Below, piece by piece: positions 3,956 to 41,614 of a stretch of DNA of 64,000 nt. Position 1 is the first letter of the stretch. Every line of letters begins with the position of its first letter. This stretch comes from a virus. Taxonomy: Duplodnaviria > Caudoviricetes. Both the position numbers and the translations under genes were made by a program. Where the stretch lies: the IMG/VR virus record IMGVR_UViG_2974664081_000001, positions 1 to 64,000 of that record, one strand, 5' to 3'. The notes beneath the pieces were generated by a model. It saw only the letters and a list, made by a program, of their open reading frames with translations. It was not told the origin of the DNA and did not search any database.

Positions 3956-4895
3956 CTGGAAGCGGCAACAAGAGCTGAAACGTCAGCAACTACTGAGTGC
4001 TTCTGGCCGTTGGACTGTGGTCAACAGGCACCACAAAAAGACCGGTGAGTATATCGGTCGTGGTACTCCGTTGGGGAACCAATGGAGCCATCTGGATAGC
4101 ACACCTCCTGAGTTCAAAGTCAGGACTCGATATGACGCTATCGAGAAATACAAGGGCTGGCTTAAAAGTCAGATCCGCAACCGTAATCCCGCAGTCTGTG
4201 GAGAACTTCACAGGCTGTATCAACTGGGCCAGCAAGGCCCAATCAACCTTCAGTGCTCGTGCAAACCAGCTGCCTGTCATGGCGATGTGATTGTCGAGGT
4301 ACTGAACCAAATGAGGCCACCCAAGATGCTCTATTACGCAGGGATTGGCAGCCGTCAGACACCAGATGATGTACTCCAGCAGATGGAACATATCGGTGCC
4401 CAACTGGCTGATGTATGGACCGTAAGGTCAGGATTTGCAGACGGGGCCGACAAGGCCTTCTGTCTGGGCGCTGAAAGTGCCAATGGCCGGATGGAAAACT
4501 TCCTGCCTTGGCTGCGCTTCAACGATGCACCGCTGAACCAAGAGGATTCACGGTTCATTGCCTGGGAGGACATTCCTAGAGAAGTGGCATTGGAGGCGAG
4601 AGTCATAGCGGCTCAGTTCCATCCCAACTGGGGAGCTTGTAGCAATGCTGCCAAGGCTCTGCATACCCGCAACGTGTTTCAGGTGCTGGGCCGTGACCTC
4701 ACTACTCATTCACACATGGTTGTCTGCTGGACGCCAAGAGGCTCTGGCTCGGGCGGTACTGGTCAGGCAATTCGCATTGCTCGTGGCTTTGGCATTCCCG
4801 TATTTGACCTAGCCATCGAGGAACACAAGGTGAAGCTCTGCCAGTTCGTGGAGCTTCAGGAACGGCAAAATTTCGAGGATTCCCTGCCATGGTAA
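3948..4895 (+). CDS. DUF4326-like domain fused to SLOG (DprA/YspA-like) domain
   Basis: N-half YIGRGTPLGN...LQCSCKPAACHGDVI; C-half YAGIGSRQTP...VRSGFADGADKAF...GSGGTGQAIRIA. Confidence 0.7.
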   Translation: MASWKRQQELKRQQLLSASGRWTVVNRHHKKTGEYIGRGTPLGNQWSHLDSTPPEFKVRTRYDAIEKYKGWLKSQIRNRNPAVCGELHRLYQLGQQGPINLQCSCKPAACHGDVIVEVLNQMRPPKMLYYAGIGSRQTPDDVLQQMEHIGAQLADVWTVRSGFADGADKAFCLGAESANGRMENFLPWLRFNDAPLNQEDSRFIAWEDIPREVALEARVIAAQFHPNWGACSNAAKALHTRNVFQVLGRDLTTHSHMVVCWTPRGSGSGGTGQAIRIARGFGIPVFDLAIEEHKVKLCQFVELQERQNFEDSLPW

Positions 4896-18935: not shown

Positions 18936-20099
18936 ATGAGCGAATTGGATTACCAGCTGCTCCAGCGCGAGCTGGATCGGACCAAAGCCGAGGTGTTCCT
19001 CAACAACAGCACTGCTGGTTTCCTTGGCTCTGTCATGTGTTCGATGGAATTCATCTGGGATGAGACCATCCAAACCGCTTCAACTGATGGTCTACGCCTC
19101 TGGTGGAACCCCCATTGGTTCCTGTCCCTGACTCCGGCCAGTCGTAAGACCGTTCTGTACCACGAGATCTGGCACCCGGCCCGGCTGCACCTGATTCGTC
19201 GAGGTAGCCGAGACCACAAGATCTGGAACTATGCCTGCGACATTCGTATTAACAACGACTTGTTGCGGGAAGGTTTCACCTTTGAAGGCATCGAATGGGG
19301 TTGGATGGATCCTGAAATCGACAAGGGGCCGAAAGGCATCTTGGCGGAAGAAGAGATCTACGAGCTGCTGATGGCCAACCAGATGCAGCCTCCACCCCAA
19401 CCGACCGGTGGTAGTGGTCAACCGGGGGATGGCGATGTGGGTGACATGCGGGAACCAACAGAGCAAGAAATCCAACAGGTGGTGGCCAACGTAGTCATGG
19501 CCGTCCAGCAAGCCAAGCTGGCTGGCTGTGGTGGTGTGCCGGGTGTGACTCAACAAACTCTAGACAAGTTTCTGGAGTCCATCGTCCCGTGGGAAACCCT
19601 GTTGTGGCGGTTCTTTACCGACATGATGGACGAAGATTACAGCTGGAAGCGACCCAATCGACGCTACAGCGATATGTACATGCCATCCCGGCAGGAAGAT
19701 GATGGCAGGCTGGAACATCTGGCCTACTTCATCGACGTGTCAGGGTCCGTGTCTGATGCTGACGTGGTGCGTTGCAACAGCGAAATCCGCTACATCAAAG
19801 AGGAGCTGAAGCCCAAGAAGCTCAGCCTGTTCTTGTTCGACACCCGGATCACGAAAGAATATATCTTTGAGGAAGACGATCCTTTCGATAAGCTTGTCAT
19901 CGTTGGTCGGGGTGGGACCAGCTTTGAGCCGGTACGGGAGAAGATCAATGAGATCCAACCCACGGCAGCCGTCATTTTCTCCGACATGGATTGTCCTCCG
20001 ATGCAGCCGCTTGACTATGACATTCCAGTGATCTGGATCGCCGTCAATGCTCGCCGGAAGACAGTGCCATTCGGGGACATCATCTTCATCAGGAGCTGA
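18936..20099 (+). CDS. Metallopeptidase-like plus VWA domain protein (N4 gp25-like)
   Basis: HEIWH (HExxH), MIDAS DVSGS, GRGGT. Confidence 0.9.
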   Translation: MSELDYQLLQRELDRTKAEVFLNNSTAGFLGSVMCSMEFIWDETIQTASTDGLRLWWNPHWFLSLTPASRKTVLYHEIWHPARLHLIRRGSRDHKIWNYACDIRINNDLLREGFTFEGIEWGWMDPEIDKGPKGILAEEEIYELLMANQMQPPPQPTGGSGQPGDGDVGDMREPTEQEIQQVVANVVMAVQQAKLAGCGGVPGVTQQTLDKFLESIVPWETLLWRFFTDMMDEDYSWKRPNRRYSDMYMPSRQEDDGRLEHLAYFIDVSGSVSDADVVRCNSEIRYIKEELKPKKLSLFLFDTRITKEYIFEEDDPFDKLVIVGRGGTSFEPVREKINEIQPTAAVIFSDMDCPPMQPLDYDIPVIWIAVNARRKTVPFGDIIFIRS

Positions 20100-20103
20100 A
20101 CCA

Positions 20104-20604
20104 ATGGTAATCAACGGTCTGGAGCTGGTCGTCAAAGCCCCAATCCAAAACATGTCAGCGACTAAAAACGCCGACCATGGCACCAGCTGGGGTCTGTCTG
20201 AAGCTGGCTACGACATCCGCATCAAGCAGACCGTAAGCTTCCGTAAGTTCCTCGGCCTGTTCCCTCAAGTAAAAGTTGGGTGGGCAGGCAAGTGGAAGTT
20301 TGGGCGATTCGCCTTGGCTTCCGCTGAGGAGCTGTTCCAGATGCCAAACGACGTGCTTGGTATAGTCCATGACAAATCGACGTGGGCACGCCGAACACTG
20401 TCGGTCTTCAACACCGTCATTGAGCCGGGCTGGAAAGGCTATCTGACCTTGGAACTTGTCTTCCATGGCAGCAAGCCGGTTCACATTCCAGCCGGGTCCG
20501 GCATTGCTCAGGTCATTTTTCATGGCCTGTCCAACAGGGCGTCATACAACGGCAAGTACCAGAACCAAGAGGACCGACCGGTAGCGGCTCGGGAATCAGC
20601 ATGA
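20104..20604 (+). CDS. dcd: dCTP deaminase
   Basis: AGYDIRI, DKSTWAR, NTVIEPGWKGYLTLEL, YNGKYQNQ. Confidence 0.9.
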   Translation: MVINGLELVVKAPIQNMSATKNADHGTSWGLSEAGYDIRIKQTVSFRKFLGLFPQVKVGWAGKWKFGRFALASAEELFQMPNDVLGIVHDKSTWARRTLSVFNTVIEPGWKGYLTLELVFHGSKPVHIPAGSGIAQVIFHGLSNRASYNGKYQNQEDRPVAARESA

Positions 20605-20831
20605 ACCTGATAAACAAGTGCCAATGCTGTGGAAAAGACAACGGCTGGGCACTACTCGATCCTGAGTACGCCGATGTCTGTGGTGAATGTGAAGCAGATA
20701 CCTCCAATCCGATTGGATTTTTCGAGGGAAGGTATCAGCTAATGGCTACTTGCGGCTGTGGTGCAAAGGGTCCTGTGAATTACGGAAAGGACCAGTACTA
20801 CTGCGGCAAGGGTCCAAGCTGTTGCCCCTGA
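20601..20831 (+). CDS. Cys-rich micro-protein (10 Cys in 76 aa)
   Basis: CQCC, CGEC, CGCG, YYC...SCCP; ATGA overlap with dcd. Confidence 0.7.
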   Translation: MNLINKCQCCGKDNGWALLDPEYADVCGECEADTSNPIGFFEGRYQLMATCGCGAKGPVNYGKDQYYCGKGPSCCP

Positions 20832-20930
20832 GCTGTTGCTTGGGGGTAGCAGCCCTGAAGAACAACCCCGCCCCCGAGAGACAACTCGGTTATCAAACCC
20901 AATGCACCTGTGGTTTGGCTGACACGCAGG

Positions 20931-21065
20931 TTGCATTGGTGAAGCGTCTCAACCAGTGACGACTGGTAGGGAAAGCTCTCTGGGGCCTCAGCACGGTCTA
21001 ATGTTAAATCATTACCGGCTGGGGACTGCACGAAGATTGCCCGTTGAGACGCTTCACCAATGCAA
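20931..21065. repeat. Perfect 23-bp inverted repeat enclosing an 89-nt structured core
   Basis: TTGCATTGGTGAAGCGTCTCAAC (20931-20953) is the exact reverse complement of 21043-21065. Confidence 0.9.
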
Positions 21066-21089
21066 GTTGGAAAGAAGATTTTAATTTCT

Positions 21090-21188
21090 AGTCGGTAGTC
21101 CGTGCATGGGCACACCTCTGGCGTAGGCCACGCCTATTGAGGAACGGCAGCTTAGCGGCTGGTGGTTCGACTCCACATACCGGCTCCA
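21090..21188 (+). ncRNA. tRNA-like RNA with aberrant anticodon arm
   Basis: Acceptor (A)GTCGGTA/TACCGGC(T), encoded CCA, T-arm GTGG-TTCGACT-CCAC, variable-arm hairpin; no canonical 7-nt anticodon loop. Confidence 0.6.
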
Positions 21189-21242
21189 TTTTCTGATAGG
21201 TGGTCACTGCCTTCCCAGTGTCAATTAAAGGAGTTCAAACTC

Positions 21243-21680
21243 ATGCTCGGTTGGTTGAAGAAGAAAGCCAAAGTCACTGCCCGTGATGTGGCCAAGTTCG
21301 AAAAGAAAGACCTGATGGAAGCCACCGTCGGTATCGGTGTGCTGACCATGTGGGTCAGTGGTTCGGCTGAAGATGCTGAGCGTGAAAAACTCAACAAGAT
21401 CCTCGCCAACACCCCGGCCTTGGCCAACTTCGGCAGCGAAGTGCAGGGCACCCTGCAACGCTATGACACCATGTGCAAAGACATGGGCTTCATGGGCGCC
21501 AAGGTTCACATCATGCGCGAAATCAAGCAGTGCCAAGGCGACCAGCACGAGATGGAAGACGTTCTGGTCACCGGCCTGACCGTCGCTCTCTCCGATGGTG
21601 AGATGGACGAAAAAGAAGAGAAGCTGCTGCGTGAAGTGGCTTCCCTGTTCGGCCTACGTCTGGAAAACTTCCTGGCCTAA
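21243..21680 (+). CDS. TerB-like (tellurite-resistance family) protein
   Basis: AAGGAG RBS; GSAEDAEREKL and ALSDGEMDEKEEKLLREVASLFG resemble the paired TerB motifs. Confidence 0.75.
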   Translation: MLGWLKKKAKVTARDVAKFEKKDLMEATVGIGVLTMWVSGSAEDAEREKLNKILANTPALANFGSEVQGTLQRYDTMCKDMGFMGAKVHIMREIKQCQGDQHEMEDVLVTGLTVALSDGEMDEKEEKLLREVASLFGLRLENFLA

Positions 21681-41380: not shown

Positions 41381-41455
41381 TGGCTGGCAAGCTTGGGATC
41401 GAACCAAGGACCGCTCGGTTAACAGCCGAGTGCTCTACCGCTGAGCTACATGCCA
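41381..41455 (-). tRNA. tRNA-Asn(GTT)
   Basis: Cloverleaf; CTCGG-CTGTTAA-CCGAG; GGTTCGATCC; encoded CCA. Confidence 0.92.
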
Positions 41456-41461
41456 AGAAAG

Positions 41462-41538
41462 TGGCGATTCCAACGGGACTTGAACCCGTGACCTCCCGCG
41501 TGACAGGCGGGCATTCTGACCAGCTGAACTATGGAATC
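41462..41538 (-). tRNA. tRNA-Asp(GTC)
   Basis: CCCGC-CTGTCAC-GCGGG; GGTTCAAGTCC; encoded CCA. Confidence 0.93.
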
Positions 41539-41539
41539 G

Positions 41540-41614
41540 TGGAAGAGGAAGAAGGGATCGAACCTTCGAATGTGGGGATCAAAACCCCATGCCTTACCAC
41601 TTGGCTATTCCTCT
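41540..41614 (-). tRNA. tRNA-Gln(TTG)
   Basis: TGGGG-TTTTGAT-CCCCA; GGTTCGATCC; encoded CCA. Confidence 0.9.

Follow-up and report, generated by a model that had tools for sequence, protein, structure and literature searches.

The locus

We analysed a stretch of 64,000 nucleotides (nt), hereafter the window, from IMG/VR record IMGVR_UViG_2974664081_000001, a complete viral genome of 75,873 bp with direct terminal repeats. Among named phages the nearest to it is Ebordelon, a Pseudomonas phage with P. putida as host. The annotation of Ebordelon is laid out in the N4-like (Schitoviridae-type) manner, with genes for a virion RNA polymerase, for two small subunits of RNA polymerase and for rIIA/B, and with a trio of transfer RNA (tRNA) genes, tRNA-Asn/Asp/Gln, adjoining the virion polymerase gene. 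A 411-nt non-coding gap of the window (20832-21242), bordered by a small cysteine-rich open reading frame (ORF) and a TerB-like gene, holds an element that keeps all tRNA parts except the one that reads codons (Table 1). The true tRNA cluster of the window (Asn, Asp, Gln; found by ARAGORN and Rfam) lies at 41381-41614 on the minus strand, distant from the element and on the opposite strand, as a preliminary description of this DNA had pointed out.

Table 1. Features of the non-coding gap and its borders, in window coordinates
Feature	Position	Strand	Remarks
dCTP deaminase gene	20047-20604		upstream of the gap
Small cysteine-rich ORF, 76 aa	20601-20831		upstream of the gap
Upstream structured RNA modules H1 and H2	20899-21065	+	
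H1	20899-20906, 20932-20939		CCAATGCA with TGCATTGG
H2	20931-20953, 21043-21065		23-bp stem of 23 contiguous pairs, enclosing 89 nt
Presence/absence cassette	21085-21194	+	TTTCT before (21085-21089), TTTTCT after (21189-21194)
tRNA-like RNA gene, 98 nt	21091-21188	+	cloverleaf, from G1 to the encoded CCA
Acceptor, 5' strand	21091-21097	+	GTCGGTA; pairs with 21178-21184, 7/7, one G.U
D arm	21102-21113	+	GTGC-ATGG-GCAC; loop ends in GG as in every family member
Central ('anticodon') arm	21115-21142	+	CCTC/GAGG around 20 nt; no 7-nt loop
Central stem strands	21115-21118, 21139-21142		CCTC and GAGG; enclose T-GGCGT-AGGCC-ACGCC-TATT
Variable arm	21148-21161	+	CAGC-TTAGCG-GCTG; GCTTAGCGGC core invariant in the family
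T arm	21162-21176	+	GTGG-TTCGACT-CCAC; 4-bp stem (21162-21165 / 21173-21176)
Unpaired A	21177		opposite G21098
Acceptor, 3' strand, and 3' end	21178-21188	+	TACCGGC (21178-21184), discriminator T73 and encoded CCA (21185-21188)
U-rich trailer	21189-21194	+	TTTTCT, directly after CCA
Leader of the TerB-like gene	21196-21245	+	ATAGGTGG; hairpin CACTG-CCTTCC-CAGTG (21205-21220); GGAG (21230-21233); ATG 21243
TerB-family gene	ATG at 21243		downstream of the gap

A cloverleaf without an anticodon loop

At minimum free energy the element folds into the cloverleaf of Table 1. Its T loop (GGTTCGACTCC), D loop (ATGG), fully paired acceptor (7/7) and encoded CCA agree with the hallmarks of a tRNA, namely a T loop of the form GTTCRANYC and a D-loop GG. 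The helices given in the preliminary description (acceptor, T stem, variable hairpin, CCTC/GAGG and TAGGC/GCCTA) are all present in the sequence. Its D-like hairpin GTCC/GGGC appears in the centroid fold only, and the relatives described below support GTGC-ATGG-GCAC (21102-21113) in its place. Canonical elongator tRNAs have a 7-nt anticodon loop with U33 and a purine at position 37; here 20 nt separate CCTC from GAGG, and no register of them yields U33. The inserted bases pair among themselves in a perfect helix of 5 bp, GGCGT/ACGCC, with a cap, AGGCC, that contains the palindrome GGCC; the alternative pairing TAGGC/GCCTA is also possible. As it stands, the element cannot decode.

Could such a cloverleaf arise by chance? 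Its folding energy is not beyond chance (z = -0.58; 49 of 200 shuffled sequences fold as well), so that the sequence alone would not exclude a chance fold. The case against one is made by homology and covariation.

Standard tools pass the element by. ARAGORN did not call it at default settings, gave nothing credible in intron mode and, at an 80% threshold, forced on it only a poor 'tRNA-Ala(GGC)', whose stem has 4 bp and whose loop is UAGGCCA. Rfam gave no match at the gathering score or at E<=10. The six distinct sequences of the family introduced below are likewise missed: ARAGORN at default called 0/6, and Rfam returned none for the relatives, its tRNA and tRNA-Sec models giving nothing at E<=1. 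Two special classes were considered and rejected. Transfer-messenger RNA (tmRNA) is marked by a tRNA-like domain with G3:U70, a tag reading frame and pseudoknots; ARAGORN found none at the locus, also at the 80% threshold, pair 3:70 of the element is C-G, and there is no Rfam match. Selenocysteine tRNA (tRNA-Sec) has an 8/5 branch, a 6-bp D stem and a UCA anticodon; model RF01852 matched no family member at E<=1, and there is no UCA loop.

A family maintained by compensatory change

A covariance model built from the window copy found one copy each in six other sequences: phage Arace01 (host P. syringae), phage 98PfluR60PP (Littlefixvirus), two IMG/VR phages (G001 and G002) and the metagenome contigs L154 (2.3 kb) and L153 (77 kb; its copy identical to the window's). 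E-values ranged from 3e-9 to 2e-6 (445,376 bases searched), and nothing was found at E<0.1 in 75 other N4-like dCTP-deaminase loci. The family thus comprises six distinct sequences. In Arace01 the member occupies the same gap, after the dCTP deaminase gene; in 98PfluR60PP it adjoins a canonical tRNA-Arg in the neighbourhood of the virion polymerase gene, and in G001, a 74-kb N4-like phage, it has an SPFH gene on one side and the virion polymerase gene on the other. G002 is a 43-kb phage with a Clp protease and an HK97-type capsid.

The six sequences share one plan. A 7-bp acceptor and a linker of 4-6 nt lead to a D stem of 4-6 bp, whose loop of 4-5 nt has GG at its end. The central stem measures 4-5 bp, the variable arm 4 bp (loop TTAGCG) and the T stem always 4 bp (TTCGANT); a single unpaired base then precedes the 3' strand of the acceptor, which is followed by U73 and CCA. 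Both U73 and an encoded CCA are found in 6/6 members, and all trailers are A/U-rich. MAFFT alignments (A2, A3 and A5) misaligned the D and central arms, for which reason coordinate-based segmentation and a model-fitted alignment were used instead. Segmentation of the six sequences gives 37/42 pairs formed in the acceptor, 30/30 in the D stem, 26/26 in the central stem, 23/24 in the variable arm and 24/24 in the T stem. In the model-fitted alignment, 93.2% of stem cells are paired, against 74.9+/-2.5 in shuffled alignments, and two-sided changes occur at 15 of 28 pairs, against 5.9+/-1.8; 0/500 shuffles reach either observed value, and slid controls give 39-46%. Fitting to the model biases these figures upward, but the same compensations can be read from the manual table.

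Five stems with compensatory change point to selection on the RNA fold. The five stems of the family are maintained through such change, and the element is neither a chance fold nor a lone relic. Random decay of all arms, which had been named beforehand as the mark of a simple pseudogene, is not what the homologues show: they keep the T loop and CCA while the central arm differs, with the acceptor, D, variable and T arms preserved by compensation.

Is this an 8/4 branch, as the preliminary description had suggested? The 4-bp T stem holds, with 24/24 cells paired and two covarying positions; a fifth pair can form in no member, its 5' base being the one that ends the variable-arm stem. The proposed 8-bp acceptor made by A(-1):T73 does not hold, since these bases are A-U in 2/6 distinct members and U.U in 4/6. 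An eighth layer would be formed instead by nt8:nt65, purine-purine in 5/6: A.G in three members, G.A in two and A-U in one, a standard pair in 1/6 only. The base after the acceptor 5' strand thus stands opposite the unpaired base before the 3' strand, which fits a mostly non-standard eighth layer and an '8/4-like' branch.

Pattern searches covered a wider field. An exact 28-mer of the T arm and acceptor and a strict 27-position pattern of the variable and T arms each had 0 matches in viral contigs. Looser patterns had 13 viral matches, three of them relevant (L140, L141 and L147, which is the L025 contig); four in metagenomes, of which L153 and L154 were relevant; one in genomes, an acidobacterial metagenome-assembled genome (MAG) with a 7/5 tRNA; and three additional viral matches, which were other odd class-II-like tRNAs. 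When the 98PfluR60PP copy was compared by blastn with 50,697 phage records, only itself and Arace01 were found beyond T-loop matches. L147 (L025 unit 1) was rejected as a member: its variable-arm loop and T loop are those of the family, but it has no CCA and a central region of ~55 nt, and it was left out because the covariance model does not reach it at E<=1. As a separate observation, class-II-like (variable-arm) tRNAs with anticodons other than those for Ser, Leu or Tyr occur in phage contigs and in an acidobacterial MAG (L055 385-477; L148; L146; L170 255-341), among them a 4-nt anticodon call, Gln(ctg), His(gtg) and a GGC loop.

The central loop and decoding

The 7-nt loops of the five relatives are ATCTAGA, TTCTAGG, TACTAGT, TCCTAGG (Arace01) and TACATGT. 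Their core is CUAG in four and CAUG in one, which would be read as the anticodons CUA (four) and CAU (one). At relaxed thresholds (85-95%) ARAGORN calls L141 and L140 as cta, L154 as cat and, in another register, Arace01 as tRNA-Phe (gaa); 98PfluR60PP is left uncalled. The window copy shares the stem CCTC/GAGG with L140. The last seven nt of its loop, GCCTATT, align with the relatives' loops and retain CTA in the same register as TCCTAGG of Arace01; 13 nt are extra.

Is the element, then, a dead tRNA of amber-suppressor type, from a family whose members decode or once decoded UAG, the window copy having been killed by a 13-nt insertion into its anticodon loop and now heading to decay? CUA at positions 34-36 of a 7-nt loop in 4/5 relatives, the relaxed ARAGORN calls, the CTA retained in the window and the absence of the element from the nearest relatives are all in favour. 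We nevertheless consider this unlikely, though deserving of attention. No stem of the window copy is damaged (7/7, 4/4, 4/4, 4/4 and 4/4 pairs), its insert builds a perfect helix and not a disruption, and the inserted form recurs with 99/99 identity in a second phage, where the flanks have diverged by 9-26%. Recoding of TAG was rejected as well. Coding density, with the standard code and with TAG as sense, was judged to be without gain in 5/5 complete genomes (0.932/0.934, 0.925/0.922, 0.922/0.919, 0.898/0.915 and 0.937/0.927), and TAG serves as a stop, terminating 8-17 of the 49-96 crude gene calls in these five genomes.

The loops themselves argue against decoding by the family. U33 is near-universal in decoding tRNAs; it is found in only 2/5 relatives, with A33 or C33 in 3/5. 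Position 37 is always G, and A33 or C33, and G37 after A36, are atypical for a working suppressor. In addition, positions 33:38 are complementary in 5/5 relatives (UA, UG, AU, CG, AU; three types of pair), and the loop can be drawn either as a one-base bulge, one pair and a CUAG/CAUG tetraloop or as a 6-nt palindrome suited to loop-loop pairing. Because the relatives' loop is unlike a working anticodon loop, an insertion there need not be an inactivation. The family as a whole probably does not decode either. The preliminary idea of a non-decoding tRNA-like RNA is upheld in this respect, the window copy having no 7-nt loop and its arms being conserved among homologues.

A working decoder would require that TAGGC/GCCTA pairing, or removal of the insert by some processing, expose a usable loop. 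CTA is indeed kept near the 3' side of the loop, and TAGG of the insert is complementary to CCTA, a parallel to the anticodon-intron pairing in archaeal and eukaryal pre-tRNAs. We regard this as very improbable, given that no register of the 20 nt gives U33, that the intron mode of ARAGORN found nothing credible and that TAG is not recoded. Thirteen nt are far below the size of a self-splicing intron, and no protein-dependent tRNA splicing is known in bacteria.

An accessory cassette in a mosaic RNA island

The window form, including the insertion and A21090, is 99/99 identical in L153. Of the surroundings, the upstream ORF is 78.8%, the trailer 73.6%, the TerB gene 91.4% and the non-coding upstream leader 97.2% identical between the two. 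In Ebordelon and the public contigs X5 and X6 the element is absent from an otherwise identical site, and the upstream RNA and TerB leader are kept. Empty sites read ...AATTTCT/ATAGG or ...AATTTTT/ATAGG (junction marked by a slash); filled sites have TTTCT on both sides. The element occurs in two upstream contexts (window; L153/X1) and at a third junction (X2). L153 carries the upstream hairpin in its Ebordelon version together with an additional segment of ~230 nt. In X2, also a public contig, a hairpin of the Ebordelon type is joined to spacer and element of the window type, which differ at 2 of 258 nt. These differing upstream hairpins indicate that the element has been combined with different neighbours. 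It is an accessory cassette within a mosaic island of structured RNAs.

Presence and absence between short direct repeats (TTTCT at both ends), and the mosaic nature of the island, might also be expected of a feature at the DNA level in place of an RNA gene, such as a site of integration or recombination or a piece of a tRNA gene that recombination left behind. We find this hardly credible. The complete 75.9-kb genome gave 0 matches to tyrosine integrase (controls positive 14/14), and the phage is N4-like with direct terminal repeats. Compensatory changes run through five stems, and both acceptor strands and CCA are present, unlike in a 3' tRNA fragment.

Upstream of the element, H1 and H2 compete for one GCATTGG segment. 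The underlying three-segment motif, CCRATG...CATTGG...CCAATG, is found in 9/9 loci (window, L002, L153, L025 twice, L024, L133, L135 and L134); its middle segment can pair either upstream, in the small 5' hairpin H1, or downstream, in the long hairpin H2. In Ebordelon the distal H2 stem is replaced by unrelated but complementary sequence. Neither motif nor island is in Rfam. A 17-mer from the upstream hairpin had 48 matches, 47 of them unrelated (mostly coding) and one the L025 contig; Rfam gave nothing on 11 of these 48 loci. The interior of the long hairpin holds a T-arm in some phages. Two of its motifs, of 17 and 15 nt (window 20968-20984 and 21031-21045), are identical in L025 unit 2 (4672-4688 and 4746-4760), where the rest of the hairpin differs. 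Just inside the stem, L025 has TGGTCCGAAGG, which presumably resembles a motif of metazoan Y RNAs.

Downstream, the hairpin of the TerB leader has a covarying stem and a loop, CCTTCC, complementary to the GGAG ribosome-binding site that follows; it is possibly a translational operator. A leader of this type also precedes the next ORF or mini-ORF in Ebordelon, L153, L024, L025, Meara and UCB24. The ATAGGTGG motif was rejected as a general promoter, as it occurs once in the genome. Another IMG/VR phage (L003, 2290-2410) has two T-arm-like hairpins, CGGGTTCGATTCCCG and GCGGGTTCGATTCCCGC, upstream of its TerB homologue, with no callable tRNA and no covariance-model match.

Does the element serve only its neighbours in cis? 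Its tRNA shape might recruit RNase P and 3' trimming, either to cut the upstream H1/H2 RNA from the TerB mRNA or to cap the 3' end of the upstream RNA, the released piece having no role of its own. Its place, exactly between the structured non-coding stretch (20832-21065) and the TerB-like gene leader, suits this proposal, and a family member adjoins long-stem RNAs in L141 and Arace01 too. MALAT1/mascRNA, the tRNA-linked RNAs of MHV68 and the tRNA-linked stable RNAs of T4 are precedents. Yet upstream RNA and TerB leader persist in Ebordelon, X5 and X6, where the element is missing; in 98PfluR60PP and G001 the member lies in the tRNA-gene region by the virion RNA polymerase gene and not before TerB; and a pure cleavage tag needs no conserved variable arm, D-loop GG, U73-CCA or covarying 33:38 pair. 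A solely cis-acting element is rather unlikely on this evidence.

Two neighbouring genes deserve mention. The 76-aa cysteine-rich ORF at 20601-20831 is kept in Ebordelon and L153, with changes mostly third-position-like, and has no Pfam family. The 387-aa protein at 18936-20099, whose gene follows that of an AAA ATPase, matches a Pfam DUF2201 putative metallopeptidase and a VWA-like domain; its homologue is labelled 'HNH endonuclease' in the Ebordelon and Meara records and 'metalloprotease' in Arace01.

Other tRNA-frame RNAs

A second family of tRNA-frame RNAs occurs in Littlefix (L137 1457-1528), 98PfluR60PP (L136 1673-1783) and Meara (L135 1392-1477). Its acceptor, D and T arms are nearly identical, with conserved tandem A.A/A.G mismatches in the acceptor, and its central arms consist of 14, 53 and 28 nt, respectively, of unrelated sequence. 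Only the Littlefix copy reaches the Rfam tRNA score (37.6 bits). Adjoining tRNA-like genes in the same three Pseudomonas Schitoviridae is a conserved motif, GGCTGATGAGGT ... CGCAGCGTTTCAGGG ... ACCTGACA, within a long hairpin (L135 ~1490-1600, L136 ~1575-1650, L137 ~1350-1440); it has no Rfam match. A further Littlefix tRNA (L137 1537-1670), not called by ARAGORN, matches the whole Rfam tRNA model at 48.4 bits over 134 nt, a span that implies an insertion of ~60 nt in the anticodon region.

Interpretation

What could a tRNA without a codon-reading loop be for? With a probability of about one half, we favour a functional, matured, non-decoding tRNA mimic that acts through the surface of its acceptor, T and variable arms. 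This reading builds on the observed structure, the family, the conserved inserted form, the cassette-like presence and absence and the lack of codon reassignment. The element would descend from a phage tRNA lineage of an unusual kind, in which a 7-bp acceptor with a purine-purine eighth layer goes together with a T stem of 4 bp, a variable arm that is short, and U73-CCA. It would be transcribed with the rightward middle-region genes, cut by RNase P at G1, trimmed within the A/U-rich trailer to the encoded CCA and folded into an L shape through the D-loop GG and the T loop. The central arm would form an interrupted rod of ~9 bp tipped by AGGCC. Such a rod cannot read a codon, and any action would then pass through the tRNA 'top half' and the variable arm. 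These parts might serve as a decoy, sponge or acceptor for some protein that recognises tRNA, such as a synthetase, a processing enzyme, or a toxin or modifier of the host that is directed at tRNA. The decoy, anticodon-nuclease and RNase P-tag roles raised in the preliminary description are conjectural. This partner, and any charging of the element, we infer.

Several points weigh against this interpretation. We identified no partner protein, no defence system and no linked gene, and the acceptor presumably lacks the E. coli serine identity set (U73 and C2:G71). Promoter and terminator scans of the locus are silent on the + strand, the reading of the element as a promoter or terminator was rejected, and no RNA run covering 20832-21242 was listed. 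The family rests on six distinct sequences, and the window form is known from two assembled genomes and one short contig. Since the leader is also nearly identical in L153, recent exchange of RNA modules could explain the 99/99 identity as well as purifying selection could. The closest named relative, Ebordelon, does without the element, which is therefore dispensable. Finally, with CUA at 34-36 in 4/5 relatives, two of which relaxed ARAGORN reads as amber-suppressor tRNAs, the relatives may have a decoding ancestry or even decode at present. The available excerpt of the LUZ7 transcriptome paper places small RNAs between orf69 and orf70, in the late region, and not at the dCTP-deaminase/TerB gap.

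A broader proposal, which we put forward only tentatively and rate as rather unlikely, would join both families: Pseudomonas N4-like and other phages would carry families of tRNA-frame RNAs with a conserved frame and a swappable central arm, and the dCTP-deaminase/TerB gap would be a hot spot for anti-defence RNAs. The acceptor, D and T arms, with or without the variable arm, would be kept for maturation and for a tRNA-binding partner, the window element being one allele. The central modules would be a palindrome-tipped loop or a rod here and 14-53 nt of unrelated sequence in the second family. Such an RNA could be a decoy tuned to toxins of the host whose target is the tRNA acceptor end or variable arm; nucleotidyltransferases of the AbiE/MenT type, which are reported to prefer tRNA-Ser, would be an example. 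Or it could dimerise or dock through its palindromic tip.

Phage tRNA genes are usually read as helpers for codon usage or as replacements for tRNAs cut by host defences. Here, a conserved phage RNA keeps all tRNA parts except the codon-reading one, in a family missed by standard tRNA finders and Rfam. If expressed, it would offer a clear example from nature of a lytic phage that mimics tRNA; a mere suppressor gene in decay would be ordinary. Natural plus/minus variants exist, the window and L153 with the cassette and the cultured Ebordelon without it. The locus also flags an unannotated island of 400-700 nt of mosaic structured RNAs in Pseudomonas Schitoviridae.

Comparison with known systems

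Phages with recoded stop codons carry amber-suppressor tRNAs, which the family resembles in the CUA at 34-36 of 4/5 relatives. It differs from them in that TAG is a stop in the five genomes, U33 is absent from 3/5 relatives and the window copy has no 7-nt loop. Stable RNAs built on a tRNA frame include engineered tRNA scaffolds, aptamer-tagged allo-tRNAs and the stable RNAs of T4. Like these, the family has a conserved acceptor/T/D frame with a foreign or enlarged central arm; it differs in being natural, phage-encoded and polymorphic.

YrlA-type Y RNAs, with which the element had been compared at the outset, mimic the D arm, T arm and acceptor of tRNA, and phage examples exist; in one case RNase P cleaves the RNA, which also acquires CCA (Chen et al. 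2014, PMC4201824, in the available part of the text). According to the same source, the gene lies beside a Ro/TROVE gene, and the RNA carries a GNCGAA motif, has its ends in the Ro-binding helix and has a closed stem-loop as its 'acceptor'. The likeness, as far as these passages go, lies in a phage-encoded RNA resembling the D arm, T arm and acceptor of tRNA. The comparison breaks down on topology and on the missing Ro/TROVE gene: the window element is unpermuted, with free acceptor ends and an encoded CCA, and the Ro/TROVE domain (PF05731) had 0 matches in the complete genome and was detected in two control genomes. With no Rfam match either, identity as a Y RNA was rejected.

The closest described kind is the (8/4) allo-tRNA. 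Such tRNAs, as presented in the accessible sections of Mukai et al. (2017, PMC5389517), occur in phages, mostly have G73 or U73 and include members whose anticodons are nonsense or odd; inactive forms, additional loops and junctions of five stems are reported there too, along with possible roles as regulatory non-coding RNAs. The family shares with them, on that partial description, the 4-bp T stem, a variable arm, a small D loop, U73, phage occurrence and nonsense or odd anticodons. It differs in its eighth acceptor layer, which is A.G or G.A in 5/6 members and not a standard pair; in its central stem of 4-5 bp, longer in the sections of PMC5389517 cited here; in its short variable arm (4-bp stem, 6-nt loop, 23/24 cells paired); and in loops with 33:38 complementarity and CUAG/CAUG. 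A translationally active allo-tRNA would have a readable anticodon, and the window copy, with its insert-bearing 20-nt 'loop' in place of a 7-nt one, has none. The non-standard eighth layer, short central stem, palindromic loop and the window's rod-like arm set the family apart from (8/4) allo-tRNAs as described in these sections, and by that measure it is a variant of the kind and not a member of it.
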